A stretch of DNA of 63,803 nt, filler included, from an uncultured Methanosarcinales archaeon (GTDB lineage Archaea; Nanobdellota; Nanobdellia; Woesearchaeales; GW2011-AR9), in the NCBI GenBank assembly GCA_964434885.1. It is 4 parts of 4 records of this genome, joined end to end, with 100 filler letters (N's around TTAATTAATTAA, not from the genome) between each part and the next. Parts side by side here need not be neighbours in the genome. Positions count along the whole stretch, not along the records: positions 34,199 to 49,821 come from CAYSWQ010000018.1; 3 more parts are not named here. One strand, 5' to 3'. Numbering within the stretch: position 1 is the first letter of the stretch; each line of letters begins with the position of its first letter. The notes under the pieces are model-generated. The model had not been told where the DNA came from and made no database searches. It saw nothing but the letters and a program-made list of their open reading frames with translations. This document shows positions 19,122-58,874 of the stretch, piece after piece. The position numbers and the translations under genes are program-made.

Positions 19122-19128
19122 TTGGCAA

Positions 19129-34098: not shown

Positions 34099-34198
34099 NN
34101 NNNNNNNNNNNNNNNNNNNNNNNNNNNNNNNNNNNNNNNNNNTTAATTAATTAANNNNNNNNNNNNNNNNNNNNNNNNNNNNNNNNNNNNNNNNNNNN
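34099..34198. other. Artificial contig spacer
   Basis: 44N-TTAATTAATTAA-44N. Confidence 0.97.
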
Positions 34199-34710
34199 TA
34201 AATACCTAATGCTTGTAATCTATATACACTAATATCAATAGAAATTAATAATCCTTCATTTTTCAGCAATGCTGCCATCTTTGTAGTTTTGCTTCCTGGA
34301 GCAGCACACATATCTAAAACTAATTCTCCTGGTTTTGGTCTTAAAACCAATGGTGGAATCATACTAGCTGCCTCTTGAACATAAATCTGTCCTAAATGAT
34401 GCTCCAATAGATTACCTACATCTCTTCGATTACGAAGTTCAACTTTACTTCCTTTCTTATATTCTACTTTTGGACCTTTAACCCAAAATCCTTCTTTACA
34501 CCAAGGAATTGGTTTCAGTTCCCAACCTTTATTTTCAATTCTTTTTTTAATCTCACTAATTTTCCCCTTTAATGTATTAATTCGTATAGAACGATTCAAA
34601 AAACTAAGAGAATGTTTTCTAAATTCTTCCCACTCTGTCAAATTAGTATATCTTTCAACAAATTTATCTTTAAATTTAATTTGTTCTGCATTAGGTAATT
34701 GTTCCAACAT
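34199..34710 (-). CDS. RsmB/NOP2/NSUN family RNA m5C methyltransferase, 3' end cut by the contig end
   Basis: SIRINTLK, GQIYVQEAASMIPPLVL, VLDMCAAPGSKTT; start placed at ATG 34710. Confidence 0.9.
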
Positions 34711-34821
34711 ATTCAAACAAAACTTAATGAGTTTAAAAAAGTTTATCTTAATTATCTTCAGCCATATCAAAACCTATATAAACTCAAATTACTTTCTAAA
34801 CCTATCAAAGAGGTGAATTTA

Positions 34822-35817
34822 ATGGTTAATGTCGCAATCAATGGCTTTGGTAGAATTGGTCGAATGGTTTTCCGAGCTGGTTATCAAGATAAAAAAATAA
34901 ATTTTGTTGCTGTAAATGATTTAACAAGTACTGAAAATTTAGCTTACTTATTAAAATATGATTCTGCTCACAGAAAATTAAAAGATCAAGTAAAACATAC
35001 TAACGACTCTTTAACCATCGGCAAACAAAAAATTAAAGTTTTTGCTGAAAAAGACCCCTCTCAACTTCCTTGGAAAGAACTAAACATAGACATAGTAATA
35101 GAAAGCACGGGTTTCTTCCTAACTAAAGAATTAGCTAGTCAACATCTTAAAGCTGGAGCAAAAAAAGTTTTACTTTCTGCTCCTGCGAAAAGTGAAAACA
35201 TCAAAACTTTTGCCTATGGAATAAATCATCAAAAATATAATAAAAAAACAGATCACATTATTTCTAATGCTTCTTGCACTACAAATTGTTTATCTCCTAT
35301 AGCTTATATTCTAGATAAAAAATTTGGAATCATTTCTGGATTTTTAACTACTACTCATGGATATACTTCCTCACAAAAATTAGTTGATGGACCACATAAA
35401 AAAATGAGACGTGGTCGAGCAGCTGCTCAAAACTTAGTCCCCACTACCACTGGAGCAACATCTGCCACTAGCAAAGTTCTACCTCAATTAAGAGGTAAGA
35501 TGGATGGGATGGCTATGCGTGTTCCATTAATCAGTGGTTCAATTATTGATTTTACCTGTCAATTAAAAAAATCAACAACTATAGAAAAAGTTAATCGGGC
35601 CTTCAAAGAATCTGCTCAAAAAGAATTAAAAAACATCTTAAAATATTCTGAAGAAGAATTAGTTTCTACTGATATTTTAACAGATCCACATTCTGCCATT
35701 TTTGACAGCAAACTAACTCAAGTATTAAACAAAAACACTGTTAAAGTTTTTGCCTGGTATGATAATGAATGGGGCTATTCTTGTCGAATGATCGATATGA
35801 TAAAGTATATGTTTTAA
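34822..35817 (+). CDS. gap: Class I (bacterial-type) glyceraldehyde-3-phosphate dehydrogenase
   Basis: VAINGFGRIGR, SNASCTTNCL active site, WYDNEWGYS; GAGGTGA RBS before ATG 34822. Confidence 0.95.
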   Translation: MVNVAINGFGRIGRMVFRAGYQDKKINFVAVNDLTSTENLAYLLKYDSAHRKLKDQVKHTNDSLTIGKQKIKVFAEKDPSQLPWKELNIDIVIESTGFFLTKELASQHLKAGAKKVLLSAPAKSENIKTFAYGINHQKYNKKTDHIISNASCTTNCLSPIAYILDKKFGIISGFLTTTHGYTSSQKLVDGPHKKMRRGRAAAQNLVPTTTGATSATSKVLPQLRGKMDGMAMRVPLISGSIIDFTCQLKKSTTIEKVNRAFKESAQKELKNILKYSEEELVSTDILTDPHSAIFDSKLTQVLNKNTVKVFAWYDNEWGYSCRMIDMIKYMF

Positions 35818-35819
35818 AT

Positions 35820-37055
35820 TCACCCCAACATCTCTTCAATTCTTAACAATTGATTATACTTGGCAGTTCTTTCTCCCCGACAAGGAGCACCAGCTTTAAT
35901 CATTCCACAACCCAACCCCACAGATAAATCAGAAATAAAAACATCTTCTGTCTCTCCAGAACGATGTGAAACCATCACTTTCCAACCAGCAGCCAAAGCC
36001 AATTTAGCAGCGTCCAAAGATTCTGTTAATGTACCAATCTGATTTACTTTCAACAACAAACAATTACAACTTTTCTCTTTAATTGCTACTTCAATCAATT
36101 CCGAATTAGTTACTGTTAAATCATCTCCTACAATTTGGATTCCACTTTTCTCCCTCAATTTAGCAAAACTTTCAAAATCATTTTCATCAAAAGGATCTTC
36201 CATCGAATAAATCTTATATTTTTTTATTAATTGTAAATAATAATCTAACAATCCTTTTTTACTAAATTTCTTATGTAACTGATAAAAACCTTCTTTTCCC
36301 CTTTTTTCAACATAAAATTCTGAAGCTGCACAGTCCATTGCCAAATCAACTTTTCCAAAATAACCTGCTCTTCTAATCGCCAACCTGATAAGTTCCAATG
36401 CTTCTTCTGCTTTTTTTATTGGTGGAGCAAAACCACCTTCATCTCCCACATTTACTGCATTTTTACCATATTTTTTCTCAATCATTTTCTTCAAAATATG
36501 GTAAACTTCACTTCCAACTCTTACTGCTTCTTTAACTTTTTTCGTCTTAGGAGAAATCATAAATTCTTGAATCGCCAATTTATTTCCGGCGTGTTTTCCA
36601 CCATTAAGTACATTAAAAAAAATCCGTGGTAAACAAACTTCTCTTCCAGATTCCTTAGCCAAATAATCAAATAAGAACTTTTTCTGACAAAAAGATCCTG
36701 CCCTAGCTACAGCCAATGAAACACCTAGAATTGCATTTGCTCCCAATTTCTTTTTATTTTCAGTTCCATCTAAATTAATCATTAACTCATCAATTTTCCT
36801 TTGTTTAGTACAATCTAAACCGATTAATTTAGGAGCAATTTTCTTCTCAACATTTCTAATCGCTTTCTTTACTCCTTTCCCAAAATATTTTTTAGTTCCA
36901 TCTCTCAATTCTAACGCTTCATTAGTTCCAGTAGAAGCACCAGAAGGAACTGCTGCAGAAAAAATTAACCCCTTAACCAAAACATCTACTTCAATCGTGG
37001 GATTACCCCTAGAATCTAAAATTTCTCTAGCTTTAATCTTTCTTATTCTATTCAT
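35820..37055 (-). CDS. eno: Enolase
   Basis: [60 protein letters not shown]. Confidence 0.97.
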
Positions 37056-37109
37056 TTTACCTCTTTTTTAGAAAGATTAACTTTAAAGATTAAATAGTTT
37101 TCTAAAATA

Positions 37110-37760
37110 TTAATCTTTAGGTGGTTTCCATCCAGGTGGTGGATCCCATCCTCCTTCATCTTCAGGTTTCTCAAACAATTCAAAAGTTTTCACTAATTTG
37201 TACCTACACTGGCTTTTTTCCGCTAATAAATCCACCACTAGTTCGTATTTTCCTGGTTTAGATGTAAAACCCATATCAAATTCTCCAATGAAATTATATC
37301 CTTTGTCATTCAAGAATTTTTTGGTTCTATTAGTCTTGGTATGAAATCGCTTGTCATCTTTAAGTACCTTATGAATCAAATATACTTCACCAAAAAGTTG
37401 ATCTATTCCAATGTAAAATGTAAAAAAAACATCAGCCCCCACATCAAATTCGGGCCCTTCTCCCCCACAACCTTTTTCTTTACTCATATTACCACAAAAT
37501 TTAAATTCTTGAGGTTTTAAATTGCAAATGGATTTACTATCTGAATCAGATTCTTGTTTTACTTTCACTGTTTCATCTTTAATCGAAGGAGCATATGGTT
37601 TTCTTCCCGAATATCCAGTTACATTATTTGCCTGGCCTAATTTTCTCTCCAAATTACTACTCGGTATCTTTACAATATTTAATTCTTCTTTACACCCAGA
37701 ATAAGTTAGTATCAACCCCATCAATCCTGCAGCCACAGTTTTTTTAAATTTCGAAAACAT
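37110..37760 (-). CDS. Lipoprotein-like Ig-fold protein, paralog of 42788..43363
   Basis: LILTYSGC lipobox-like; FKFCG...GPEFDVGADV...PGKYELVVDL...FELFEKPEDEGGW. Confidence 0.7.
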   Translation of the reverse strand: MFSKFKKTVAAGLMGLILTYSGCKEELNIVKIPSSNLERKLGQANNVTGYSGRKPYAPSIKDETVKVKQESDSDSKSICNLKPQEFKFCGNMSKEKGCGGEGPEFDVGADVFFTFYIGIDQLFGEVYLIHKVLKDDKRFHTKTNRTKKFLNDKGYNFIGEFDMGFTSKPGKYELVVDLLAEKSQCRYKLVKTFELFEKPEDEGGWDPPPGWKPPKD

Positions 37761-37802
37761 TTACTCTTTAGAAATAACAATTATTTATAAAATTTATCAA
37801 TT

Positions 37803-40127
37803 CTACTTCATTGCCAATCTTATTCTGGCCTCATCTTTTCTAATTTTCGCCAATAGATTTCTTGAAGCTTCCAAATTATATAAATTTGGAGTCAATTTAC
37901 CAGTGATCACATAATCTTTTTTTCTACTTATAATTTTGTTTAAATTAGTCTCACAAGCACTAAAAACCCCTTCTGCATGCTTTTTGCAGGAATCACTAGT
38001 CTGGTAAGCAATATGTTCTCCTTTCTCATTCTTACCCCCATAAATCATTGTATGGCCTAATCTTCTTCGATTCTCATCTCGGTACGGTGCTCCTAATTTA
38101 GTAATCATATCTCCTTTCTTAAATTTATGATCAGAAAAAAACTTATCTAATTGTTTCTTATTAAACTTGCCCACATTAGTCCCACTTTCCTTCATCTCAG
38201 GAATTCTCCCTATCCGAGTATAAGTGTAAGATCCAGGAACATAATGTTTCCCTAAATCTTTAGTATTCCGCAACAAATTATCTTCCCATTTACCAAAACT
38301 TCTTGATGTTCCTTTTACCAAAACCACTTTTGGACCCAAATCAACATCTCCCATTGCTAAACCAATCGCTTCAGAAATATCTGTGCAAACAAAATTAATC
38401 CCCGTTAACCAACCTTCTTTTGGATGATTAGGCCTACTTAATTTACTTCGATGTTCCCCACTATCATAAGGATAACCTTCTAATAATTTAGCATACCACA
38501 CAATATATTCTCTAAACTCTTCTTGATTTTGTGGTCGATCACCATTACTAATCCCAGTATAACCAAAAGGTACTTTTATTAAATCTGCTCTTGCTTTACG
38601 ATCTAAAATAGTAATTGGACCTTTTTCTTTATTTTTCCAGTCCCCTGTCACTTCCATTTGAATTGTATCATAACCACGATAATTCCAAGCCCTTTTATCT
38701 TTCGTACTACCTGTAACTAATGAACCGTCAATCCCTTGGAATAATTTATCATTTTTTAATTCAACTGCCCAATAACCATTATGTATTCTTGCTCTTCCTT
38801 TCAAATCTACAGTCAACTTATCTTTTTTAATATCAATTTTAGCTCGACTATCAGATGATTTTGATGGTTTTACCATCACTTCAAATCTATCATATTGATC
38901 TGTGTTTAGTAAATAAGGTTGGGCGGGAATTCTTGTACCTACAAAAAATTTATTAGCATATGATTTCTTATAATCTTTACCTATTTTTTTATACAAATAT
39001 CTTAACTCATATTTATCAAATAATACTTTCCCTTTCCCTTTCAATTCCAAACCTTCTTTTTTTAACACCAATTGATTTTTCTCCTTTCCAACCTTATCAT
39101 AATTTACTTTCAAATCTCCTTTTACACCAATTCCTCTTAAATAAACCATTCCTTTTTTCTGAGTTTTAATATGGGTAACCTTTCCTTTCTTTAATGTCAC
39201 TATTGCTTTATTTATTTGGTCTAATTCTCCTTTTTTCACTTGCACAGTATATTTTCCAGAATCAATTTTCAGAGTAGTATCTGAAGCTACACTTTCAATA
39301 ACTAATTGTTTCGTCAAAGTCAATTTATCAAAATCAAATGATAAAGAATTAAATACTGGTTTTTCAAAGCAAACTCCACCAATGCATTTTGCTTCCCCTT
39401 TAATTTTACCATTAGAAAAAGTAAAAAATCCCTCGTCAACCAAAAAACTTTTTCCCATTCCTTTTGTGGCTTCTGCTCCAAATTCACTTGTAATCGTTCC
39501 AGAAGACAAATAAAATTTTCTATTCTTCTTCTCCACCTTTCCTTCAAAACTATAATATCGAGTTTGTCCTTTCGGTTGCAAAATTATTTTTCCTTTAGCA
39601 TCAACTTGGAAATTAAATTTATCTTTCCAATCCAATAAATTTATTTTTTGTTTTAATGTAGAAAGATCTCCTTGTTTATAATTCCCAATATCTCCTTTAA
39701 GTTTCAAAGTTACTCCTTGCGCAGCCAAATATTTTACAAAAACTCCTTTGTTATCATTAATATTATTTTTTTTACCTTCGAAAAATTCTTTAGCAATTTT
39801 TTGATCTGCAGTATTCTTAAAAGTCCCTTGATAATAAGAAAAATAAATTGTAGCTAACTCATCATTTGGTTTTTTCAACAAATATGTTCTTCGATTATGT
39901 TGATCTAATCTCAAGAAATTTATAGGAGTAGGTTTACTAACTCTAGCTAAATCAGTTGCAGTTGGATTTGTCAAAAAATTAAAATTATTTGAAGTTGGTT
40001 TCAATTCAAATTGTTTAGCACATTCATATTCACTTTGACAATCAGCATAAACTAAACCGACCACTAACAAGAACACAATTAACCAAAGTTTATATTTCAT
40101 CTTCCCATTCTTTCCAAGTACTTTCAT
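37803..40127 (-). CDS. Large secreted protein with a C-terminal NlpC/P60-like (DUF1287-like) papain-fold domain
   Basis: Signal peptide (probable start MKYKL at 40100); YAKLLEGYPY, FVCTD (catalytic Cys), KKGDMI, GHTMIYGG (His). Confidence 0.65.
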   Translation of the reverse strand: MKVLGKNGKMKYKLWLIVFLLVVGLVYADCQSEYECAKQFELKPTSNNFNFLTNPTATDLARVSKPTPINFLRLDQHNRRTYLLKKPNDELATIYFSYYQGTFKNTADQKIAKEFFEGKKNNINDNKGVFVKYLAAQGVTLKLKGDIGNYKQGDLSTLKQKINLLDWKDKFNFQVDAKGKIILQPKGQTRYYSFEGKVEKKNRKFYLSSGTITSEFGAEATKGMGKSFLVDEGFFTFSNGKIKGEAKCIGGVCFEKPVFNSLSFDFDKLTLTKQLVIESVASDTTLKIDSGKYTVQVKKGELDQINKAIVTLKKGKVTHIKTQKKGMVYLRGIGVKGDLKVNYDKVGKEKNQLVLKKEGLELKGKGKVLFDKYELRYLYKKIGKDYKKSYANKFFVGTRIPAQPYLLNTDQYDRFEVMVKPSKSSDSRAKIDIKKDKLTVDLKGRARIHNGYWAVELKNDKLFQGIDGSLVTGSTKDKRAWNYRGYDTIQMEVTGDWKNKEKGPITILDRKARADLIKVPFGYTGISNGDRPQNQEEFREYIVWYAKLLEGYPYDSGEHRSKLSRPNHPKEGWLTGINFVCTDISEAIGLAMGDVDLGPKVVLVKGTSRSFGKWEDNLLRNTKDLGKHYVPGSYTYTRIGRIPEMKESGTNVGKFNKKQLDKFFSDHKFKKGDMITKLGAPYRDENRRRLGHTMIYGGKNEKGEHIAYQTSDSCKKHAEGVFSACETNLNKIISRKKDYVITGKLTPNLYNLEASRNLLAKIRKDEARIRLAMK

Positions 40128-40875
40128 TCGCTTTATCTAAAGCAAAAGTGAATTTATAATCTTTATCAAAAATAGTCATATAAGAATATCCTTCTCGATT
40201 ATCATAAAATTCTTGGTATTTCAAATCTTCTAAGCAATTCAAACATAACAAACCATTATTTTTTCTATCTTCTACAATTTTTTTTGCTGCTCTATGTATC
40301 TTCTTTAATTTAACTGGATAATTTACTTCTACCTCTCCAGTTTCCCAATAACTATTACCTAAATTAGTTTCTAGTGGATAACTCAAACTCATCACAAAAC
40401 CCAAATCCGTTAATTTGGTTTTTGTTTTAATAGGCCCTTTTTGTTTAATAGAAAAACCTTGTTCCAAAAAAATAGTAAAATTACAACTTTTCTTTAAATT
40501 TTCATTCACATATTTATTAGTCTCTTTTTCAAACACAAATAAATCTGGCACATAATTCTTGTTTTGATAATAATACAAAGGAACTTGGTAAACATTAGAA
40601 AACCAAAAGATACTGTTATTCGGAGCGTTATAATAACCTCCTTGGTTACCATTCCATTCCACTGCATCTTTCAAAACCTTTCGACCACAATTATCCAAAT
40701 ATAATTGAATTGAATTGAATTGCACTGGTTCAACTGGTTGATATTTAGCAGGTGTACTAAACACATACAATCCAAAAGCCATCAAAATAAATATCCCAAT
40801 GATTATGAAAATAGTTACTTGTCCTTTTTTATTTTGTTTTGAGAAAAACAATGCAAATATTTTACTTTTATTCAT
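40090..40875 (-). CDS. Class III (prepilin-type) signal peptide protein
   Basis: NKKG/QVTIFIIIGIFILM; IQLYLDNC...GNQGGYY...VPLYY. Confidence 0.8.
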   Translation of the reverse strand: MNKSKIFALFFSKQNKKGQVTIFIIIGIFILMAFGLYVFSTPAKYQPVEPVQFNSIQLYLDNCGRKVLKDAVEWNGNQGGYYNAPNNSIFWFSNVYQVPLYYYQNKNYVPDLFVFEKETNKYVNENLKKSCNFTIFLEQGFSIKQKGPIKTKTKLTDLGFVMSLSYPLETNLGNSYWETGEVEVNYPVKLKKIHRAAKKIVEDRKNNGLLCLNCLEDLKYQEFYDNREGYSYMTIFDKDYKFTFALDKANESTWKEWEDEI

Positions 40876-40892
40876 TTTACATTAGTTAAAAA

Positions 40893-42800
40893 CTATCTAT
40901 ATTTTCTCGATTCACAAGTTCTAGTTTTAGTATCTGCTCCAGAAAAATGAGCTGGACAAGCCTTATATGTCAAACAATCTTTAGGATTATTTGTCAAAGC
41001 ACATTTATTAGTCCATAAATTCGGTAAAACCATTTTCGGATTTGCATTATTCCACCCAGGAATTTCATTTCCACCAGCTCTCTGCATACAACGATGGACA
41101 AAATGAGTCCGACCCCCTATTTCTGTGGCCCCTTTGTCCTCTTCTCCCACACACATGAAAAATTTAAGCGCCGATTTAACACAAGCTCGATGAGTAGATG
41201 TTCCATCTATCCCTCGCTCTTTTTCTAATATTTTAGGGCTTCCCTTTCCCCCAAACCAACTTTTCCCTTTTCCTCCAGCTACAACTGTCTTAACTGTTTT
41301 TTTCCCATTATCCAAATATTGTAACCACCCTTTTGAATGTTGAACTCGATTAATAACTGCCTGAGCAATAGCTCCTCTTTCTTTAGCTAAATAATCTTGA
41401 CAATCTCTTTCAATTGATAATATCCGAGCCATGTATTCGACATCTTCTAAATAAGCAGCCCCGATATTTTTTTTAATATAATCTTTTATCTGACCAGAAG
41501 TAGATAGTTTATTGATATCTTTTTCAATTTTATCCGGTAAAAGAGCAGTAATCACAACTCCAGGATCTACGTAATGTACTGGAGATGTACTACTTAACTT
41601 CCCATCAAAACTAACTTTCCCAATCGCATATACATTCTTAGGATTCAAATCATCAATCTTAACTTCAGTTGAAGAGTGTAATCTTTTAATGGCCCTACCA
41701 GTATCACTATAAATAAAACCAACATGAGGTAAACCTCTCCATTTTCCCTTACTGAAATATATTGGGTTTTCTGTCCCATCATCCAAAAAAGGTTGCATTT
41801 TACCATTCTTTATTGTGCTAGTAAAAAACAAATCCCCTGGTTTTACAATATCTTTTAATTTTTCATAAGTTCTTTCTTCTGGTTTTAATACCCTGATTTG
41901 ACACCATTTCACGTTTGGATCTTTACATTTTGCATATATTCCACCAACAACATAACCAATTGTTCCTGGCTTAATTCCCCATTTAGTACTTACTACGTGT
42001 CTTACAAATCCCTGACAATCAAAACCACTATCTCGGCAATTAGGTTTTGAACGGGCAGACCCTGGATTTTTTTGACAATTTTTACAATCATCAAAACTAG
42101 TACAAGATGACAATTTATCTGTTGTAAGAATTAAAGAACAAGCCCACCTACAAGTATGTTCTAAAGGCCTAGAAGGATCTGGAGTATTATAATCTGAACC
42201 GCCAGTATAATAATTACATTCTGTTTTACAAGAATTTACAAATTTAGATTTAGGATTCCTATCTAAAATCCCACCTTTACACAAATCACACTTAGCTGAA
42301 TTTTCTGTACATTCACTAGCGCAAGCTTTTTGCATACAATAAAAACATTTAGTCCATCTATTGTTAAAATCTCGAGGATAATCTTGTCCCCCATAAACAT
42401 AAGGTGCCCCTAAAAAGGTTTTCCCATAATTAAGCAACGCTTGATTATTTTTTCCTGAAACTGCACCTCCAGTGATTGGAGTTGTAGTCGAAGTACCTGC
42501 ACCACCACTTTGACCAGCAGCAGCATTCTGACCTGCACCATCTCGACTAGTCGTTCCAGTAGGCTTAACATATTTCTTCCAACTTGGAGGTGTAGTTGTT
42601 GGATCATAATATTGTCCAATATATTTTCCAATACGACTAGCAATTTTCAACCACACTTCATCAATTTCACTCAATGTTACTTGGGTAGAACTACCTGCCA
42701 CACTAGTTGCACCGGGATTGGCTGGAGCATAAACAAAAGGTACAATTAAAACTAAGAAAATTACCAACACCAACAACTGGTAAGTTTTCATGTAGGCCAA
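40893..42800 (-). CDS. Secreted two-domain putative cell-wall hydrolase: NlpC/P60 endopeptidase plus SleB/Hydrolase_2-like lytic transglycosylase
   Basis: GKTFLGAPYVYGG...GFDCQGFVRHV...VKPGDLFF...HVGFI; EDVEYMARILSIE...ERGAIAQAVINRV...TVKTVV. Confidence 0.75.
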   Translation of the reverse strand: MAYMKTYQLLVLVIFLVLIVPFVYAPANPGATSVAGSSTQVTLSEIDEVWLKIASRIGKYIGQYYDPTTTPPSWKKYVKPTGTTSRDGAGQNAAAGQSGGAGTSTTTPITGGAVSGKNNQALLNYGKTFLGAPYVYGGQDYPRDFNNRWTKCFYCMQKACASECTENSAKCDLCKGGILDRNPKSKFVNSCKTECNYYTGGSDYNTPDPSRPLEHTCRWACSLILTTDKLSSCTSFDDCKNCQKNPGSARSKPNCRDSGFDCQGFVRHVVSTKWGIKPGTIGYVVGGIYAKCKDPNVKWCQIRVLKPEERTYEKLKDIVKPGDLFFTSTIKNGKMQPFLDDGTENPIYFSKGKWRGLPHVGFIYSDTGRAIKRLHSSTEVKIDDLNPKNVYAIGKVSFDGKLSSTSPVHYVDPGVVITALLPDKIEKDINKLSTSGQIKDYIKKNIGAAYLEDVEYMARILSIERDCQDYLAKERGAIAQAVINRVQHSKGWLQYLDNGKKTVKTVVAGGKGKSWFGGKGSPKILEKERGIDGTSTHRACVKSALKFFMCVGEEDKGATEIGGRTHFVHRCMQRAGGNEIPGWNNANPKMVLPNLWTNKCALTNNPKDCLTYKACPAHFSGADTKTRTCESRKYR

Positions 42801-43363
42801 CCCCCTTCATCTTCAGGCAACTCAAACAATTTAAACTTCTTCACCAAGGTAGATTTCTTATTCAAAACTGCATTAGAAATCAATAATTCTAAAGTATATT
42901 CTCCTGCTGGATCAGACAAATCCATTGAAACATAATCTTTAAATAATATCTTTTCAGTTTTTGCATTGCTTAATTTATCAAAATAAAAATTATCTGTATT
43001 ATCAGCTTCTAACAAAACTTTTCCTTTAGCATCCTTAATTCTATAATTCTCAACTAGTTTAACCTTTCCTTCATAAACTGTACTTTCCACCACAAACATA
43101 AAATGAACATCTGCCCCTACATCAAATTCGGGTCCTTGTCCCAAACAAGAGAAATTAGAAGAGATAGATCCACAAAATTTGAAATCTTTAATGGCTAAAC
43201 TACCTTCTCTTTGATAAGGAATAAATTCTGTATTCAATACTGATTCAGTACTTTCTTTAACACTCAATATTCCTGTTTTAATTAACAACAACATTCCTGC
43301 ACTAGTTAAAAGAATTACTCCTAAGATAACCAATACACTAACCGCAATTCCTCCTTTTTTCAT
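42788..43363 (-). CDS. Membrane-anchored Ig-fold protein with a class III-like leader, paralog of 37110..37760
   Basis: MKKG/GIAVSVLVILGVILL; FKFCG...GPEFDVGADV...PAGEYTLEL...FKLFELPEDEGGW. Confidence 0.7.
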   Translation of the reverse strand: MKKGGIAVSVLVILGVILLTSAGMLLLIKTGILSVKESTESVLNTEFIPYQREGSLAIKDFKFCGSISSNFSCLGQGPEFDVGADVHFMFVVESTVYEGKVKLVENYRIKDAKGKVLLEADNTDNFYFDKLSNAKTEKILFKDYVSMDLSDPAGEYTLELLISNAVLNKKSTLVKKFKLFELPEDEGGWPT

Positions 43364-43365
43364 TT

Positions 43366-46300
43366 TTATTTACACGAAATAAAACCAAACCATTTGTTAC
43401 TATTTAGATTGATACTACGTTTCCAAACAGTATTATCATAATTTCCACTTATTCCTTTAGCACTGTTCCCATTAATTTCAGTTATAAAATCACAATGGGC
43501 TTTTTTCCAATTTGGTGGAACTGGCAAATTGTTATAATCTATTGGACATCCATCAGATCTACATTCACAAACCAAATCCCCAACTTTAATTTTATTTTTC
43601 TCAGACATCGGATAAGTAGTACAACTACTAGATTCACCTTGTTGAACTCTTTGAAAATATCTTGTATGGGAACAATTGAATGGAAAATCAGAAACTCCTG
43701 CTTCTTGATAAATAAATGAAATGAATGCTGCTGACCAAGCATCCTTGGTGGGGCTTGCGGTTGGTGCTCCACAAGCAGTATAATACTCTTTAATCCGGTT
43801 CTGCATTACATTTTCTTTTTTACTCCCTTTTCCAAATAACACCCATTCTTTATTCACTTTTTCAATAATCTTTTTGGACAATGTTTGCGTAGTTGAAGAA
43901 GTTGATGAAGTGACTGGACCACCAATAGGAGTAGGAGTAGCTATTGGACCAGAAGAACCACTTCCTGATCCAGAAGATGTAGTTCCTTTATTCTTTCCAA
44001 ATTTCTCACTTACCAAACTTAAATACATATGAATCTTTTTATACTCATTCGAATTCTTAACTCTCGAATTATAATTAATACTTCGCGTTGTCAAAAATAA
44101 ATCTGCAAAGGCACCTGCTTCTTTATTATTACCTTGCATAATTTTAGCAGCAATATAATAATACACAGCTAAAGCATCAACAACACCATAATTTTTATCA
44201 GTATTACTTTTCGCCATTACTGTTTGAGCACTCCTAATCAAACTAGTATAATCATTAGCTTTCCACAAGGAGTAAAAACTACTTGTAATTCCCCCTGTCC
44301 CAGGAATCGCTTGGAAATTATGTTGAATTCTTATTTCCGCCGTATGACTTGGTTTCCCAAAAGTAGTAGTCAAAGGAGTAGTTGTTCCAGAACAACTATC
44401 TTTAATTGGGTGTCTTACTTCTACTTGTAATTGTAATTTTTTAATGTTACTACTTATACTAGTCGCTGTAGATTTAGCATTGTAAGTACAAATATTAATA
44501 CTCTTACCACTAGCAATACTAGTTTTAATTGGACTAGTAATCCTCTGACCATTAAACTTAAACTTAAATTCTTCAATATCTTTAGAACTCAATCGATAAT
44601 TATTATTTTTAGTAATTCTTCTATTGGTATCCACATTATAAGTATTCTTGTCGTCTATTGTCATTGCACTCGGATTATCTACCGACAAAATATATTTAGT
44701 ACTATCTTGAGTATCTTTCTTCAAATCAAATTTAACACTAGAATATCCAGTAACTCCCCAGATGTTCTCAGTTTTATAAGTTCCACAATCCCCAGTAGAA
44801 CTTACTTGTAAATTACTAGTAGTGCCCCCCAATAAAAGATCGGTAACAGTCATCAAATTAATTTCTGGAGTAGTTGTCCTAGATAATGTTGATGCTGCAA
44901 TAGGAATAATCATCGGAGTTCCCATCCCAGTTAATTGAATTTTCAAACATTGTTTTTTACCATCACTAAAAATATGTGGGCGAATAGTAATTTGGTCTCC
45001 CTTCTTCAAATAGTTGTAAGAAGCATCTCCATCACATTGAATCCATTTCCCAGTGTATTTATTCAAACATTCTACATAAGGTGCCTGTAAATGAGTATTA
45101 CCCATCTTATTAAAAAAGTTAGATAATTGTGGACAACTAAACCTACCTGTTTTACTATCTGCTTGACAAGAAACTAAAGGCTTACCTGAAACATCAGTGA
45201 TTGGAGCATAATAAACTCCTTTGTTTCCTTCAATATGAGAAGCTTCAAAACAATTTTTTGGTTCTTCAAAACGATCTAATTCAATTTCCAATACCACATG
45301 ATCATAAACATAAGGTTTAGGTACAATATGGGGTGATTTCAAAGGCACACTGACATAACTACCAGTCTCAACTCCTCGAACACTAGTAAACAAAGAATGT
45401 TCCATTTCTGGATATTTCTGATTAATTCCTAAACATGGACAAGAGCCAGGAGTAGCACAATCAATATTTTCTTTACCTAAATCTGCTGCCGTAACACATT
45501 TTAATTTAACTTCATACTTCCTTATCTTACATCCAGGGAAAATACTTGCCCCAATACGATAACTATATGTTGGCGCTCCTTTAATTGGATCATAAGAAAC
45601 TAATTCTCTTTCTGCCGGTACAATCAACGCACTAGTTTTCATCGGAGTGCGATAAGCTGCATCAGTTAAAAAATCTAAACCATAAGGCCAATCATAACCA
45701 AATGCTGCCAAACAAACATTTCTAATTATTCCTTGTGAACCTGCTTTAAACATCTCATTCAATTTAGCATTACCATATTCTTGACTTAAATCACTCATTG
45801 AAGTATCTAAAGCGTCTTTAACTGCACTCAATCCAAATCCAACTCCTGCTTCAACAGCAGTTTGATCTTCTCCCCTTCCAATATCTAAAAAAGGTAAAGG
45901 TGAACATCCCTTGGAAGCATAAGCAAATAACTTATACAATAAACCACAAACTGCTTGACTAAATAATTCTTTACAAGTCCCAGCATTTTTGATTCCTGTA
46001 TATTTAGCTTCAATCAAACAATTTCTTACTCCCTTTAGTACACTATTTAACATCCTCAATCGGTTATAGATTCCACTTAAACATAAAGTTTGGAACGCTG
46101 CTAAATGAGAAGTAAAAGGATTTATTTCTGCAATTGTTTTTTTAGTTTTAGTCATATCTAAAACATGGTCTAATCCAAACGCTGCCGATAAATCACGGCC
46201 TTTATAATATCTCCACGTTGGATAACATAAACCAGAACTTCCACCATTACAAGTACTAGGATCTCCTCCAGTTTCTCGAAACAACTGTGCCTGTCGATAA

Positions 46301-49300
46301 CTCCATTCTTGTTTCACTGAAGTTTGTTTCTCTCCTTTCTTTCTTTCTTCTCCCTTACAAACACAAACACTAACTTCTTTCGTCGGATTACTTGTTCCTG
46401 TCGTAGTTCCTCCAGTTTTTTCAACAACGGTCTTTGTACTACCATCTGGATTTGTAATTTTAGTAGTTGTTTCAATTACTTTTCCCCCTGCTGTTCCTTC
46501 TGCTTGTGGAAAACAATCCTTTGTATAACCAGCCACATAATGATTCTCTTCTTTAATCTCTTTTTTAGGCTTTTCAGTATTCATATCAATAGGAGCACAT
46601 CTAGCTTTTGTAAATCCTTTTCTTTGTTGACATAAATCAGTACAAGTAATATCTCTACTAACAATATAATTCTTAGCTCCTTTTGGTTGATAAGCTAACA
46701 AAGTATCAGAAGTGAAATCATTATTCCCTATTGATCCTCCTGCTGTATTACCAATTCGAGACAATTTCCAAATTCTAGTCTTCGTGTAAGCCTCAGTCCT
46801 CTCAGCAGCAGTCATTTTGATATAATAAATATTCTCTTTACCATCAATATAACAAGTATTTTTCCCAATCTCTTGCAAAGTAGTTTTGAAACTAGCTACG
46901 TCAGTAAGTCTAGTAAATTTACTTGGATTCTTTTCCCAATAACCTTGACAATTCTTCAATTCCCTTAAAGGAACTCCCATTCCAGTAAATGCCCCACAAG
47001 CTTGTTCAGCTAATTTGGCTTGCATCACTTTATCCTCATCAGCATCTTCAGTCCATTTCGCCGGAGCTTTATGACAATAAAAACGATCACAAGACCATCT
47101 TAATGCCGTATTTAACACTGATTCTGCTTTCCAAGCCCCTGCCGTCATACTACATTTCTTTTCTAATTCTAAATCTTCACGTTTACCTTTTACATATGCT
47201 TCTGGTAAATTAGCATTTGACTTTCCTTTAACTTTGTCAAAACTATCTAATGTTTTTTTCAAAAATAATTCCTCTGGCTTAACACACTTCTTAGCATCAT
47301 CATTTTCTGCCTTATCTAAAAAAGGTTCTAATTTAGAAATAAATTTTCGATATATTTGAGTAACCAATCGTAAAGCCATAGATACTCCACAACCAACCCC
47401 CACTACCAACATTGCCTTTTCAATATAAGGTAAAATAGTATCAATTGCATGGGTTGTTTTATTCAATGCATCTGTTAACCCATCAACCAAAGGTCCAGGC
47501 ATCAAATCTTTACTTTCTAAAGGAATATCTACAAAATATCCTAAATTAATACAACTAGTTTGAGTTTTAGTTTCACCCCAACCACCTTTAGCATTTCTTT
47601 CTTGAAAAGCTAATTTAATTTGTAATGGAAATTTTAATTGTCTTTTCTGAAAATCTTGCCATAAATTAGGATCTTTTTTTGTTAATTCACTAGTTCTACC
47701 CAATGTTGCTTGTAGATAATATGCAGTTTTATCTGGACTACCAACGGGCACAATATTTCTCGGAAAAATTTTACAACTAATATTAAAATCTCCTTGCTTA
47801 AGCATACCTGGAGTACAAGCTCGATCCACAGTCATAGACATAATCCGATAAGGTTGTTCTCCTTGTTTAGCTGCCACTGCCGAACCAGAATATTTTAATT
47901 TCAACATTGAACTAATAGTTTGTCTTCCATCATCCAACAAAGTAGGTTGTAATCGATAAGGTAATTGATACTCAATCATCGGATCAACATTAAATGCATA
48001 ATCAGCAGAATAACAATTATAAATTAAAATCGTTTTTCTCGCGGCAAAATTAGTCACTCTTCCTAATTGATCTTCTGCTAAAATATAAATTTCAAAAGAT
48101 TTTTGAGTTTGTCCCCTGATAATATCTGCTGCTGGCAAAACTACATCTACTAAACTAGATGGAATATGTCTTGGACTTAAATCTTTCAAAGAAATTGGAG
48201 TTCTTTCAAAATTAACATTAGAAAAAATAAACTTTCCTTGTTTATCTGCTGTCACTACTGCTCGCGCCTTCTTAAAATCTGGAGCCCGACTATAAACTTC
48301 CCGCGAAAAAACATAAAGATATACTTTCGCTCCTGGTTTAGTCAACCCAGTAATATCTGATTTTGCTCGACCTTCATAAAAAGTTGTTCCTCCCACTACT
48401 GTTGCTGTGACAGTTGGAACTTTGGTATCGGAAAATACTTGTAAAGATAAAATATTCTTTCTACCACCAATATCTTTAGCACTAATGTCAATATCGTTTT
48501 GTCCATCTCTTAAACTTACTTCCTTGGAAAAGTTATTAGTTTGTACTTTGTAAGCACTTCGATTATTAACAAAAATTTCCAATGAAACATTTTTATTAAC
48601 TGTTCCTTCTAATTTAACTTTAGTTTGATTAACTCTAGCTAATACTGGTTTCAATGTAATTTTTGGTTTCTTTAAATCCGCATAAACACTAAATTTCTTA
48701 CTACTTTTTTGACCTAATTTATCTTTCACTTCCAATTCAATCCGATTAACTACATCACTACTCAAACTTACTTTTGAAAACAAAAACGATTTATTCACTA
48801 CTGCTTTTGTCGAAGTAGTAGCACCATTAACTTTCAATTTAACTTGTACTCCTGTATCTGTAGTTCCAGAAATATTAATCTCGGAAGAAGCCACACTACT
48901 TGGTAAACTAACAACTATTTTTGGCAAAGTTTGTGTTTTATTCCCTCCCAATACTACACTTTTTTTGGCCAATGTTGTAAATGAATAAAAACTACCTGAA
49001 TTATTATCACTTTCATTCCCACTTTTAACTTCATAAAAATATTTAGTGGAATTTAATAAACCACTCAAAGAAAGGCTATGGTTTTCAACTTTTGTAAAAT
49101 CGCTTTGAATACTTAATTTACTCAAATTTGTTCCATAATGAACATAACTATCTGCACTTTCATTGGTTTTCCAGTTAATCACTGCACCACTTCCAGTAAC
49201 ATTAACAGCTTGGATATCCGAAAAAGAAATTGCTTGAACTAGTGGCCAATTCAAAAAAAGCATAATCACTAACCAAACCTGAAAATTTCTATTCCAATGC

Positions 49301-49314
49301 TTTTTTTCATTCAT
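43366..49314 (-). CDS. Giant (1982 aa) secreted protein: FN3/Ig-like domains, Cys-rich core, Ser/Thr/Gly linker, C-terminal DUF2272 (CHAP-like) domain
   Basis: Signal peptide; AVINWKTNE...VHYG...LSGL..STKYFYEV FN3; Ig-like repeats; tip AWSAAFISFIYQEAG..FP...SHTRY...KVGDLVCECR...AHCDFIT...GISGNYDNTV. Confidence 0.75.
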   Translation of the reverse strand: MNEKKHWNRNFQVWLVIMLFLNWPLVQAISFSDIQAVNVTGSGAVINWKTNESADSYVHYGTNLSKLSIQSDFTKVENHSLSLSGLLNSTKYFYEVKSGNESDNNSGSFYSFTTLAKKSVVLGGNKTQTLPKIVVSLPSSVASSEINISGTTDTGVQVKLKVNGATTSTKAVVNKSFLFSKVSLSSDVVNRIELEVKDKLGQKSSKKFSVYADLKKPKITLKPVLARVNQTKVKLEGTVNKNVSLEIFVNNRSAYKVQTNNFSKEVSLRDGQNDIDISAKDIGGRKNILSLQVFSDTKVPTVTATVVGGTTFYEGRAKSDITGLTKPGAKVYLYVFSREVYSRAPDFKKARAVVTADKQGKFIFSNVNFERTPISLKDLSPRHIPSSLVDVVLPAADIIRGQTQKSFEIYILAEDQLGRVTNFAARKTILIYNCYSADYAFNVDPMIEYQLPYRLQPTLLDDGRQTISSMLKLKYSGSAVAAKQGEQPYRIMSMTVDRACTPGMLKQGDFNISCKIFPRNIVPVGSPDKTAYYLQATLGRTSELTKKDPNLWQDFQKRQLKFPLQIKLAFQERNAKGGWGETKTQTSCINLGYFVDIPLESKDLMPGPLVDGLTDALNKTTHAIDTILPYIEKAMLVVGVGCGVSMALRLVTQIYRKFISKLEPFLDKAENDDAKKCVKPEELFLKKTLDSFDKVKGKSNANLPEAYVKGKREDLELEKKCSMTAGAWKAESVLNTALRWSCDRFYCHKAPAKWTEDADEDKVMQAKLAEQACGAFTGMGVPLRELKNCQGYWEKNPSKFTRLTDVASFKTTLQEIGKNTCYIDGKENIYYIKMTAAERTEAYTKTRIWKLSRIGNTAGGSIGNNDFTSDTLLAYQPKGAKNYIVSRDITCTDLCQQRKGFTKARCAPIDMNTEKPKKEIKEENHYVAGYTKDCFPQAEGTAGGKVIETTTKITNPDGSTKTVVEKTGGTTTGTSNPTKEVSVCVCKGEERKKGEKQTSVKQEWSYRQAQLFRETGGDPSTCNGGSSGLCYPTWRYYKGRDLSAAFGLDHVLDMTKTKKTIAEINPFTSHLAAFQTLCLSGIYNRLRMLNSVLKGVRNCLIEAKYTGIKNAGTCKELFSQAVCGLLYKLFAYASKGCSPLPFLDIGRGEDQTAVEAGVGFGLSAVKDALDTSMSDLSQEYGNAKLNEMFKAGSQGIIRNVCLAAFGYDWPYGLDFLTDAAYRTPMKTSALIVPAERELVSYDPIKGAPTYSYRIGASIFPGCKIRKYEVKLKCVTAADLGKENIDCATPGSCPCLGINQKYPEMEHSLFTSVRGVETGSYVSVPLKSPHIVPKPYVYDHVVLEIELDRFEEPKNCFEASHIEGNKGVYYAPITDVSGKPLVSCQADSKTGRFSCPQLSNFFNKMGNTHLQAPYVECLNKYTGKWIQCDGDASYNYLKKGDQITIRPHIFSDGKKQCLKIQLTGMGTPMIIPIAASTLSRTTTPEINLMTVTDLLLGGTTSNLQVSSTGDCGTYKTENIWGVTGYSSVKFDLKKDTQDSTKYILSVDNPSAMTIDDKNTYNVDTNRRITKNNNYRLSSKDIEEFKFKFNGQRITSPIKTSIASGKSINICTYNAKSTATSISSNIKKLQLQVEVRHPIKDSCSGTTTPLTTTFGKPSHTAEIRIQHNFQAIPGTGGITSSFYSLWKANDYTSLIRSAQTVMAKSNTDKNYGVVDALAVYYYIAAKIMQGNNKEAGAFADLFLTTRSINYNSRVKNSNEYKKIHMYLSLVSEKFGKNKGTTSSGSGSGSSGPIATPTPIGGPVTSSTSSTTQTLSKKIIEKVNKEWVLFGKGSKKENVMQNRIKEYYTACGAPTASPTKDAWSAAFISFIYQEAGVSDFPFNCSHTRYFQRVQQGESSSCTTYPMSEKNKIKVGDLVCECRSDGCPIDYNNLPVPPNWKKAHCDFITEINGNSAKGISGNYDNTVWKRSINLNSNKWFGFISCK

Positions 49315-49821
49315 TTAATCTTCGGCCCCAATACTGCTGCATTTATTCTAGAATACTTTTCTAATCCACCAATAAAACTATATAATTCCATATTGTCTTT
49401 GAAATTATCTTTAGTTAATACATTAAATGTAATCTCTTCCGCTGATTTCAATTTATCCCAATCCACAGTCCAATTACCTTGATATCCACCCAAAATAGTT
49501 TTATCATCCATCAAATAAATTTCTAATTGATATTCATAATCAGTACCTGCTAAAAAATTCAAAGCACTTTGATCTAAAACACTTTTACTTAATCCTGGAG
49601 ATATAACTAATGTTTCTTGATGTTTACCCCAAGATTCTTTACTACGAGTGATTTTAATTGATACTGTTTCCTTATTACTCATTTGTTCTGTAGAACCAAG
49701 ACTTTTAGCTTCTAAACCAACTAATGTATTGAATTTATTTTTCACCACTTTAATTTTCTTAGCTGGAAATTTTAATAGTTGAATCAATTCTAAATCTACA
49801 CTTTTAGAATCATTGGCAACT
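49311..49821 (-). CDS. C-terminal part of a surface protein, 5' end cut by the contig end
   Basis: Frame is open to the gap; LNFLAG..YEYQLEIYL....ILGGYQGNWTV; ATGA overlap with the giant gene. Confidence 0.65.
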
Positions 49822-49921
49822 NNNNNNNNNNNNNNNNNNNNNNNNNNNNNNNNNNNNNNNNNNNNTTAATTAATTAANNNNNNNNNNNNNNNNNNNNNNN
49901 NNNNNNNNNNNNNNNNNNNNN
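49822..49921. other. Artificial contig spacer
   Basis: 44N-TTAATTAATTAA-44N. Confidence 0.97.
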
Positions 49922-50163
49922 TGTCCATCAGACTGAGTAATTACATTGATAACATGAGGAGTTCTTTGGTTTTGAAACAAGTAACAAGAACCAGGCTCTA
50001 GTAAATTCTTGCGACATTTTTTTTTATAATCTTGAAACATTTCTGGAAAATACATTTTAAATTGCTGTGCTATGCCTGCATTCATTTTTCCTTGATTATT
50101 ACAACCTTGAACTAAGTGGTTTGAAGAAGTAGAAAATAAATCTCCATTTTTATATATGATCAT
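49922..50163 (-). CDS. Macrodomain protein (DarG/TARG1-like ADP-ribosyl glycohydrolase), 3' end cut by the contig end
   Basis: MIIYKNGDLF...LVQGCNNQGKMNAGIAQQFKMYFPEMFQDYKKKC...LEPG...VINVITQ. Confidence 0.85.
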
Positions 50164-50900
50164 TTGATCAGACCTCCCAATGCTTTGCTAATGCGATATC
50201 TATCTGGGTTTTCTGGATGCTCAAAACAATGATATTGGACTGCTTTTTTAAATTCTGGACAATCTAAGTAGGGGAGAATATCTTTAACTTTTTTCTCTAT
50301 GGTTTCATCATTTTCCAAAATTAAAAGTAATCTAAGTTCTTCTCCATTAATCGGTTTTGTTCGCTGATTGTGGATTTGTAAATTTAAGTACGTGGCCAAA
50401 ACAGATGCATGTGCCAAGGGTTCGGGTTTATTGATGTTTCCATTTTCTTCTACATCATAAAGAAAAACATTTTTGCCTATTCTTTGCTGTTCTAATATTT
50501 CATCTAATGCCTCAGTTGGAGCAAAATTATCTAAGTAATAGTGGTAAGAAGGAACATAAATCTTCCATCTGGCATCTACTAGATTTAGACGCTCTCTTCC
50601 AAATTGATGTCCTTCGACATTTCCTTTTCTTTTGCGTGGTTTTTCTTGAAACATCGCATCATCAATGACCCCATCAATAATTTTAAGTCCTTGCCAAATA
50701 GATTCAACAGAATGAGCATAAACATTTTCCATTCCAGGAACAGGGATTTCAAATTTTCTAGAAAAAGTGAATGGACTTAAGTGTTTAAATGGTTTTTTAC
50801 TATATGAGGAAACATCAAAGGCACAGAAACTTGATTTGGGATTTTGATTATTACTGTAAAGTTTCCCTTTTTCTTTAGAGACAAAAATTATATTACTCAT
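50160..50900 (-). CDS. DUF6939-like protein (NADAR-like motifs)
   Basis: DVSS....FKHLSPF...IPVPG...AHSVESIWQGLK...GHQFG...ARWKIYVPSY...PLAHASVL. Confidence 0.65.
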   Translation of the reverse strand: MSNIIFVSKEKGKLYSNNQNPKSSFCAFDVSSYSKKPFKHLSPFTFSRKFEIPVPGMENVYAHSVESIWQGLKIIDGVIDDAMFQEKPRKRKGNVEGHQFGRERLNLVDARWKIYVPSYHYYLDNFAPTEALDEILEQQRIGKNVFLYDVEENGNINKPEPLAHASVLATYLNLQIHNQRTKPINGEELRLLLILENDETIEKKVKDILPYLDCPEFKKAVQYHCFEHPENPDRYRISKALGGLIK

Positions 50901-54148: not shown

Positions 54149-54171
54149 AAAAATAAAGAGGTAATAAAAAA

Positions 54172-54759: not shown

Positions 54760-54760
54760 A

Positions 54761-55318: not shown

Positions 55319-55326
55319 AAATAAAA

Positions 55327-55947: not shown

Positions 55948-55981
55948 CTATTTTTACTATTTTTTGTTTCTTTTTAAATTT

Positions 55982-56401: not shown

Positions 56402-56513
56402 TATTCAATAAAAAAGAGAATAGTTATAATAAAGTTATGTGAGTATTTTTGAGTAGTATACTATTAGATTAGGGAAAAGTTTAAATGATGATTAACATTA
56501 AACATTAAAAAAG

Positions 56514-58817: not shown

Positions 58818-58874
58818 TATTTCTCGTAATCTTTTTAAACACTTGAATTACTCTTTAATAAAAGAGGCAATTAG

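Follow-up and report, generated by a model that had tools for sequence, protein, structure and literature searches.

Why should an archaeon without a bacterial-type wall carry, in a single operon, exported and pilin-like proteins together with domains of the kind that cut bacterial cell walls? The question is raised by seven minus-strand genes that fill positions 37110-49820 of a 63.8-kb stretch of DNA (63,803 nucleotides, hereafter the window) from the metagenome-assembled genome (MAG) GCA_964434885.1, which derives from an uncultured archaeon of the Woesearchaeales. An earlier note on this DNA had proposed a pilus-associated complex for breaching a bacterial or pseudomurein wall. The answer that we favor, and that we consider fairly probable, is that the operon couples a conserved surface scaffold, encoded by genes 7, 6, and 5, to fast-changing exported murein-cutting enzymes directed against bacteria. 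The window comprises four MAG contigs (C16, C17, C18, and C23) joined by the linkers listed in Table 1 and, since its parts are separate contigs, genes flanking a linker are not genomic neighbors. The source bin measures 1.07 Mb in 66 contigs and is 92% complete with 0% contamination. The operon lies entirely on contig C18 (window 34199-49821, 15,623 bp), and position 49821 is the end of that contig, not of the operon.

Organization of the operon

We numbered the open reading frames (ORFs) from the 3' end of the operon as genes 1 to 7. The earlier note had described seven co-oriented genes, six of them linked by less than 20 nt, and the junction distances bear this out: genes 7/6, 5/4, and 3/2 overlap by 4, 13, and 38 nt, respectively, genes 6/5 and 4/3 are separated by 2 and 17 nt, and only genes 2/1 are further apart, at 42 nt. 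None of the seven proteins had a match in NCBIfam. An export leader had been claimed for every gene with an intact 5' end. Hydrophobic N-terminal segments were indeed found in genes 2, 3, 4, 5, and 6, whereas gene 1 has by eye a short lipobox-like leader (..LTYSG-C23) that falls below the hydrophobicity threshold. An A+T-rich TTTATAAATA box is situated ~25-33 nt upstream of the gene 1 start codon (window 37761-37802), and gene 1 may have an archaeal promoter of its own besides operon read-through.

Table 1. Coordinates of the operon, its predicted domains, and other features of the window.
Feature	Position	Strand	Description
Gene 7 fragment	49311-49820	-	Last 169 codons of a ~680-aa protein; C-terminal beta-sandwich part; open at the contig end
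Gene 6	43366-49314	-	1982-aa exported giant: signal peptide, FN3/Ig-like stalk, cysteine-rich body, DUF2272 tail
FN3-like domain, gene 6 residues 40-114	48973-49197	-	Pfam Pur_ac_phosph_N, 28.8 bits vs cut-off 30
Ig-like domain, gene 6 residues 226-296	48427-48639	-	Pfam Glucodextran_B, E 1.1e-8, 35.4 bits vs cut-off 27
DUF2272 domain, gene 6 residues 1818-1971	43402-43863	-	C-terminal fusion; Pfam E 6.4e-19
Gene 5	42788-43363	-	191-aa type-IV-pilin-like scaffold protein
Gene 4	40893-42800	-	635-aa exported, predicted bifunctional hydrolase
NlpC/P60-type region (probable), gene 4 residues ~122-390	41631-42437	-	~110-aa cysteine-rich insert; candidate catalytic Cys262, His359, His375
SleB-like lytic-transglycosylase-fold domain, gene 4 residues 442-621	40938-41477	-	Candidate catalytic Glu464
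Gene 3	40090-40875	-	261 aa, class-III leader; paralog of the N-terminal third of the gene-7 family
Gene 2	37803-40127	-	774-aa exported protein; family-shared N-terminal body and orphan C-terminal domain
Orphan C-terminal domain, gene 2 residues 540-774	37806-38510	-	Possibly papain-like; candidate Cys581, His692, His705
Gene 1	37110-37760	-	216-aa gene-5 paralog; lipobox-like leader replaces the pilin-like one
Enolase	35820-37055	-	Contig C18
GAPDH	34699-35817	+	Contig C18; matches Gp_dh_N and Gp_dh_C
Linkers (three)	17387-17486, 34099-34198, 49822-49921		N44-TTAATTAATTAA-N44

Genes 7, 6, and 5 belong to a conserved scaffold

Gene 7 is cut by the contig end, and the rest of it was found as the last ORF of contig C31 from the same bin (469 codons, open at the contig end). 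This ORF shares 47% identity with residues 1-478 of the ortholog in relative G027 and carries the leader ..SRKG/QITIYIILG.., while the fragment in the window matches residues 507-679 of the same ortholog. As in the relatives, a PAC2 gene precedes the 5' part on C31. Gene 7 is thus one gene of ~680 aa, and the operon starts ~1.4 kb beyond the end of contig C18, so that the window contains its 3' 12.7 kb. An AlphaFold2 (AF2) model of the G027 ortholog, made with 42 sequences and having a mean predicted local distance difference test score (pLDDT) of 86.7, predicts a long N-terminal helix (residues 28-54), an alpha/beta domain (~65-400), and two beta-sandwiches (421-522 and 523-680).

The giant protein encoded by gene 6 is uneven in composition, as 14 of its 17 N-x-S/T sequons and none of its 48 cysteines fall within the first 400 residues, and an alignment of 22 giant orthologs contains ~40 invariant cysteines. 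This composition fits a predicted extracellular, disulfide-bonded body on a glycosylated stalk. In the orthologs of relatives G018, G044, and G043, fn3 domains score above the cut-off. The body itself had no recognizable relatives in Pfam or, for residues 400-1780, in a language-model atlas. Homologs of gene 6 with 33-47% identity over residues ~10-1775 were found in 35 of 36 same-family genomes, each from another genus, and partial homologs in 18 of 24 other families of the order. Gene 5 starts with the leader MKKG/GIAVS followed by ~25 hydrophobic residues, and in the relatives its orthologs directly follow the giant gene. Co-folding of giant residues 1470-1800 with the gene 5 ectodomain gave a score of 0.01 against a mark of 0.32, a value that speaks neither for nor against binding.

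The remaining genes repeat parts of this set. Gene 1 is 39% identical to gene 5 over 137 aa (E 9e-21), and gene 3 matches residues 26-246 of the G027 680-aa protein (BLASTP, E 3e-13). Genes 3, 2, and 1 therefore constitute a second, smaller module between the scaffold and the enolase gene. The body of gene 2 (residues 10-620) matches ORFs in 22 of 113 family genomes, none of which reaches past residue 619.

The slot behind the scaffold varies between genera

To compare the locus across the family, we fetched it from 32 same-family genomes and tested the slot downstream of the scaffold with Pfam in the 25 that have sequence there. The recurrent order starts with PAC2, followed by a 650-730-aa protein (corresponding to gene 7 at its C-terminus and resembling gene 3 in its N-terminal third), the giant, a 175-225-aa ortholog of gene 5, a variable exported protein, and often enolase. 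Sixteen of the 25 relatives encode a classical murein-hydrolase family above the cut-off in the slot: SLT by itself (G004, G010, G020, G022, and G027) or together with M15_4 (G021 and G024), Amidase_2 (G035), M15 (a 3,116-aa protein in G007), or M23 (G023); Amidase_2 by itself (G018) or together with GH25 (G002) or M74 (G031); M15_4 by itself (G005 and G017); and M74 by itself (G032). One more has a DUF2272 protein in the slot (G001), and in another a Peptidase_M74 domain is fused to the tail of the giant (G015), bringing the relatives with at least one murein-hydrolase domain at the locus, DUF2272 counted, to 18 of 25. The slot proteins of G011 and G015 share the SleB-like domain of gene 4 (BLAST, 2e-47 and 9e-31, respectively), and the giant of G014 ends in a bacterial SH3_3 domain. 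SLT (PF01464) is present in 60 of 113 family relatives, at the scaffold locus in 10 of those in which the scaffold was located, while the genome studied here has no SLT match. Thus, the exported hydrolase of the slot varies between genera behind a conserved scaffold of genes 7, 6, and 5, and the test set by the earlier note, a constant scaffold with variable hydrolase tips, was positive across the family.

Two of these loci had further peculiarities. In G032 (L065, 8456-13502), the order is giant, a 175-aa ORF, a 1,312-aa Peptidase_M74 protein, and the gene 5 ortholog, from which it follows that the pilin-like gene may flank the hydrolase on either side, as genes 5 and 1 do here. In G036 (L049, 8279-9312), a nucleotidyltransferase-type pair of small genes resembling a toxin-antitoxin pair is found between the gene 5 ortholog and a 1,731-aa exported protein without a Pfam match; the giant gene of this genome seems to be split.

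Predicted hydrolase domains of the operon

DUF2272 (PF10030) scored 68.9 bits on the tail of gene 6 against a cut-off of 27 (E 6.4e-19) and 74.4 bits in a six-frame search. Most giant orthologs are devoid of this tail, as their matches end near residue 1775, and DUF2272 was found in 16 of 114 family genomes. Invariant in all 12 DUF2272 sequences aligned from the family are W-S-A-x-F-x-S, His75, Cys108, His132-Cys133-Asp134, and G-N (alignment numbering). A search of PDB sequences with the tail returned nothing useful.

Gene 4 is rare: only 17 relatives turned up when 1.84 billion representatives were scanned in full with HMMER, a word-based homolog search returned gene 4 alone, and a PDB sequence search was likewise of no use. 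Residues 122-326 align with one of the relatives, P0013 (29% identity, E 4e-21), which itself scores 37 bits on NLPC_P60 (PF00877), and the relatives P0013, P0014, P0016, and P0017 all exceed the cut-off of that family with 28-43 bits. The alignment with P0013 includes G-A-P-Y-V-Y-G-G, a shared cysteine-rich insert of ~110 aa, G-F-D-C-Q-G-F, and P-G-D-L, and G-F-D-C-x-G and one histidine are invariant in 6 of 6 sequences. Because these homologs pass the cut-off and the cysteine and histidine motifs are kept, the N-terminal half of gene 4 is a probable NlpC/P60 member, in which Cys262 and His359 are candidates for catalysis.

The C-terminal domain of gene 4 was identified by fold. In the AF2 model, residues 420-635 are for the most part predicted with confidence (pLDDT 80-97) and the domain matches the SleB catalytic-domain fold, so the SleB-like fold call was confirmed at the level of the predicted structure. 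Foldseek with the whole model found nothing, because two thirds of that model are of low confidence. Hydrolase_2 (PF07486) gave no Pfam match for gene 4 and sub-threshold matches in 7 of 9 homologs of this domain and in the G011 protein (21-25 bits against a cut-off of 27). Glu464, which sits in the homolog consensus ..IER.C, is a candidate catalytic residue. In comparison with SleB of Bacillus, a spore-cortex lytic transglycosylase (PDB 4fet and 4f55), the gene 4 domain is 16% identical and, unlike SleB, has no SleB-type N-terminal peptidoglycan-binding domain and belongs to an archaeon without spores.

For the orphan tip of gene 2, a word search of 5.8 billion sequences found no homolog other than itself, a six-frame search of 400 genomes of the order gave one chance-level match, and hhalign against the gene-4-type NlpC/P60 alignment returned a probability of 0.4. 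In a language-model search, NlpC/P60-CHAP cluster sets accounted for 21 of 30 matches, the top match being DUF1989. By eye, the tip has motifs in the order of NlpC/P60 enzymes: E-G-Y-P-Y-D-S-G, F-V-C581-T-D, K-K-G-D-M-I, and G-H692-T-M-I-Y..E-H705-I-A-Y.

Pilin-type leaders and assembly machinery

The two class-III motifs described in the earlier note were recovered as KKG/QVT at residues 16-21 of gene 3, within the leader ..NKKG/QVTIFIIIG.., and as KKG/GIA at residues 2-7 of gene 5. Genes 3, 5, and 7 all have the class-III pattern of a short charged N-terminus, [KR]-[GA], and ~20 hydrophobic residues. Among the 31 matches listed for the 680-aa family, 24 fit [GA]-Q-[VIL]-T-[VIL]-F and 2 more have close variants of this motif; in the remaining 5, the ORF is cut or split. 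Members of the gene 5 family have [KR][GA]-x4-[EQ] followed by ~20 hydrophobic residues, which in sequence terms is the type IV pilin pattern; of 22 sequences aligned, 14 have E at position +5 and 4 have Q.

Two T2SSE-type ATPases are encoded in the genome, one at window 56514-58817 and the other on contig C4, which establishes no more than the presence of such machinery. The first of them, a 767-aa protein, is part of a type-IV-filament-like cluster on contig C23 (window 53588-61052) that also encodes a 725-aa protein without a Pfam match and three ~190-aa proteins with similar hydrophobic N-termini and no Pfam match; this cluster may handle proteins with class-III leaders. Further modules of class-III-leader and large exported proteins were found on C13 (7774-12659), C6 (22170-27493), C24 (1825-7814), and C28 (9468-11924) (loci L182-L185), with leaders of the type K/R-G-Q-x-T/S-x-F. 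The C6 set of 273, 737, and 196 aa mirrors the gene sizes of genes 3, 2, and 1. In addition, a 567-aa protein of the same genome with a class-III leader carries Peptidase_S8 (subtilase, E 1.4e-51). As the leader also heads these other modules and the subtilase, it appears to be a general surface-protein device of this organism.

Prepilin-type leaders are known from non-pilin proteins in the Sulfolobus 'bindosome', and the present locus likewise has non-pilin proteins with such leaders. Type IV pili reportedly attach ultrasmall episymbionts (Saccharibacteria) to their bacterial hosts (PMC9894109), and pili-like appendages of ultrasmall cells have been observed entering host cells (PMC7906910). 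Unlike the bindosome and the Saccharibacteria type IV pili, the operon has no assembly genes of its own. Its products may form one pilus-associated complex, as the earlier note proposed, the evidence being the structure of the operon.

Archaeal origin of the locus

The organism is a Woesearchaeota-type DPANN archaeon and the locus is chromosomal. The partial 16S sequence in the bin scored 838 bits on the archaeal model, and the enolase/GAPDH synteny of the contig is common to Woesearchaeota and Nanoarchaeota MAGs, so the archaeal host assumed in the earlier note was borne out. As in many relatives, PAC2 is found upstream and enolase/GAPDH downstream of the locus. A pattern search of 185,579 species genomes gave 260 matches, 253 of which encode relatives, and the 80 kept are labeled Woesearchaeota, Nanoarchaeota, Nanoarchaeia, or plain 'archaeon', with some records labeled 'Methanosarcinales'. 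The stretch is present in DNA runs labeled marine or seawater metagenome from two studies, and none of the listed runs containing it is recorded as RNA. Contigs from four DNA runs match the assembly piecewise at 3-7x depth, none covering the whole stretch or reaching beyond it.

Several neighboring features of the window were also recorded. The GAPDH gene contains ..SNASCTTNCL.. and is found near the locus in several relatives; we take it to be of the bacterial/eukaryotic class-I type, unlike the usual archaeal type. Contig C17 encodes four co-oriented exported proteins of 264, 469, 551, and 357 aa (window 18327-23224), two of which share the internal start region ..MEKKPL(V/I)IALISL.. and one of which has a Stig1-like cysteine-rich stretch. 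At the start of contig C23 (window 49870-50900), a 246-aa DUF6939 protein (E 4e-30) and a short ORF running into the linker are unrelated to the operon.

Target and alternative explanations

SLT, GH25, Amidase_2, M15/VanY, and M74 enzymes cut MurNAc-GlcNAc bonds, the MurNAc-L-Ala amide, or D-amino-acid peptide bonds. The slot families thus act on MurNAc or D-amino-acid features, and as pseudomurein lacks the features addressed by several of them, the predicted target is bacterial murein, and pseudomurein, the other wall named in the earlier note, was rejected. Under the reading we favor, the class-III-leader stalk protein, the Sec-exported giant, and the pilin-like protein (genes 7, 6, and 5) would form a scaffold on the archaeal surface, anchored by or assembled through pilin-like N-terminal helices. 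The hydrolase load of this organism would be threefold, consisting of DUF2272 on the giant, gene 4, and the module of genes 3, 2, and 1. The archaeal cell would attach to a bacterium, and the scaffold would hold these enzymes against the sacculus of that bacterium. Local cutting of glycan strands and peptide stems would then breach the wall, allowing close contact and feeding or else lysis. A bolder version, which we regard as doubtful, holds that the three scaffold proteins are a dedicated organelle for breaching host walls and that the family consists of obligate episymbionts or predators of bacteria. Polymers of the class-III-leader proteins would then make up a short stalk resembling a pilus, with the disulfide-rich giant as the platform at its tip, and the range of bacterial wall chemotypes open to attack would depend on the swappable hydrolase cassette.

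A number of observations weigh against the reading we favor. Three concern the domains, four of which the earlier note had counted as hydrolases. DUF2272 stood by its Pfam match, and we know of no activity for this family; the proposed likeness to CHAP found no support in the W-S-A-A-F motif, which has an invariant serine (12 of 12 sequences) where a CHAP-like enzyme needs its nucleophile cysteine. On gene 4, the SleB-like domain stood by fold, while the NlpC/P60 assignment is only probable and comes through homologs: residues 257-331 score 18.5 bits on NLPC_P60 against a cut-off of 23 (17.1 in six frames), and with pLDDT <50 over residues 24-418 this half has no confident model. The tip of gene 2 had no matches in Pfam (E up to 10), PHROGs, or PDB sequences and no profile support, and from the motifs seen by eye and the language-model lead it is possibly papain-like. 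Others concern the locus. In three relatives (G011, G012, and G025) the slot yields sub-threshold matches only, and in four more (G009, G014, G028, and G036) it yields GDSL or metallophosphatase domains or nothing at all. Hydrolases also occur away from the locus: in several relatives, the SLT ORFs are on other contigs only, and the present genome has a 550-aa Amidase_2 ORF on contig C27 (3448-5100, L187; E 7e-17) without an obvious signal peptide. No prepilin peptidase (Peptidase_A24) was matched in the 92%-complete genome; as the enzyme is present in 23 of 24 same-family relatives, its gene probably lies in the unassembled part. Outside the family, a 620-690-aa class-III protein and a 1,350-2,220-aa giant occur together in 13 of 14 loci fetched, the 14th being cut at the contig start. 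A gene 5 ortholog was detected in none of these 14 loci, and none of 8 downstream ORFs had any Pfam match. A pair without adjacent hydrolases implies that the scaffold is not intrinsically wall-breaching and that the pair is older than the hydrolase link; it may be a general envelope structure merely co-transcribed with hydrolases in this family.

This last point is the core of the most serious rival, in which genes 7 and 6 are a general cell-envelope module that forms an S-layer-like two-component coat (of the SlaA/SlaB type) from a membrane-anchored stalk protein and a large canopy protein, and the enzymes, secreted and simply co-transcribed, digest free murein debris as a source of amino sugars and amino acids without any attachment to a living bacterium. 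The order-wide pair without adjoining hydrolases, the sequon-rich N-terminus of the giant, and the class-III-type leaders of other enzymes such as the 567-aa subtilase all speak for it. We nevertheless think it rather unlikely, as the slot and gene 5 co-occur in the family in tight and often overlapping linkage to the scaffold, and as the giant itself carries a fused hydrolase or wall-binding domain in three genomes (M74 in G015, SH3_3 in G014, and DUF2272 in the present one); these fusions argue for a physical link between the hydrolases and the scaffold. The fusions, to a scaffold protein of 1,900 aa, together with operon linkage in all examined genera, also count against the idea that the enzymes are diffusible antibacterial weapons, bacteriocin-like killers that are released and whose linkage to the scaffold is incidental. 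Patchy and fast-changing domain content is typical of weapons, and the available text of one report describes secreted archaeal peptidoglycan hydrolases that kill bacteria (PMC12352652). A genome of ~1 Mb would presumably gain little from competition without a partner, and on balance we find a released weapon improbable.

Two further alternatives have little to recommend them. The idea that the enzymes remodel a murein-like wall of the archaeon itself has in its favor a single Mur_ligase_M match in the genome, but no transpeptidase was found in this 92%-complete genome (MurA, MurB, MurG, MraY, and FtsW were not searched for), and ORFs of the same kind as this sole Mur-ligase-like ORF were also matched in both archaeal control genomes listed; such a self-directed role is very improbable. 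Foreign DNA, either bacterial contamination or the lysis module of a phage, plasmid, or conjugative element, would account for the pairing of NlpC/P60 with a lytic transglycosylase, a combination known from conjugation and phage-tail lysins of Gram-positive bacteria. Against this, the locus sits between PAC2 and enolase in many genera, PHROGs matched none of the operon proteins, viral contigs hold no relative of the 680-aa (gene 7) family, the cluster is without an ATPase, coupling-protein, or capsid gene, and run contigs from two studies that cover parts of the stretch differ from it little or not at all. The synteny and the join of contigs C31 and C18 led us to reject bacterial contamination of the bin, and a prophage, plasmid, or conjugation module was rejected on the results from PHROGs, the viral-contig search, and the synteny; of all the alternatives, foreign DNA is the one we find scarcely credible.

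Relation to known systems and significance

Large proteins of Woesearchaeota that cut murein have been published before. Castelle et al. 2021 (PMC8204110) proposed that bacterial walls are bound by large extracellular SLT proteins in Woesearchaeota and Pacearchaeota, and suggested bacterial hosts. Vigneron et al. 2022 (PMC9723730) proposed that Woesearchaeota have a 'vampiristic' lifestyle, and Strock et al. 2025 (PMC12352652) found that archaeal peptidoglycan hydrolases, prominent in Nanoarchaeota, kill bacteria. The proteins described here resemble those of the first two papers (fam00969) in coming from the same archaeal group, in being exported murein-cutting proteins of up to ~3,000 aa, and in their proposed role of binding or attacking bacterial walls, and the fourth gene of many relatives, such as the 3,116-aa protein of G007 with SLT and M15, is of the kind described in PMC8204110. 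Unlike those proteins, the genome studied here uses the SleB fold, NlpC/P60, and DUF2272 in place of SLT, and the available text of both papers, supplements aside, describes single proteins and not a three-gene scaffold with a swappable slot. With the enzymes of Strock et al., they share an archaeal source, export, murein as the predicted target, and shuffled domains. That survey, in its available text, required a known wall-binding domain and concerned single genes, mostly of haloarchaea, whereas the enzymes here are linked or fused to a lineage-specific scaffold and are without recognized wall-binding domains except for SH3_3 in one relative. Neither the scaffold-plus-slot locus nor an enzyme combining the SleB fold with NlpC/P60 was found described in the full-text literature searched, supplements of the cited papers aside. 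What seems to be new is the vertically inherited three-gene scaffold, its pilin-type leaders, and the hypervariable slot.

A family-wide murein-cutting toolkit that is vertically inherited and tied to a conserved surface scaffold is a stronger sign of bacterial partners or prey than isolated hydrolase genes. Woesearchaeales are among the most widespread DPANN groups, we know of no identified host for them, and to our knowledge every DPANN archaeon cultured so far lives on another archaeon. The slot holds divergent predicted wall-lytic domains, from gene 4 with its 17 relatives among 1.84 billion representatives to the gene 2 tip, for which no homolog was found, and its enzymes, together with the scaffold proteins, provide concrete experimental handles that include a means of narrowing down the wall type of the host. 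If the scaffold were indeed a dedicated organelle, the family, searched here in 114 species genomes from 58 genera, would have a cross-domain lifestyle with its host range written in the slot. Because scaffold and pilin-like genes adjoin wall-cutting enzymes in an archaeon that lacks a bacterial-type wall, the locus suggests that this family lives on, or preys on, bacteria.

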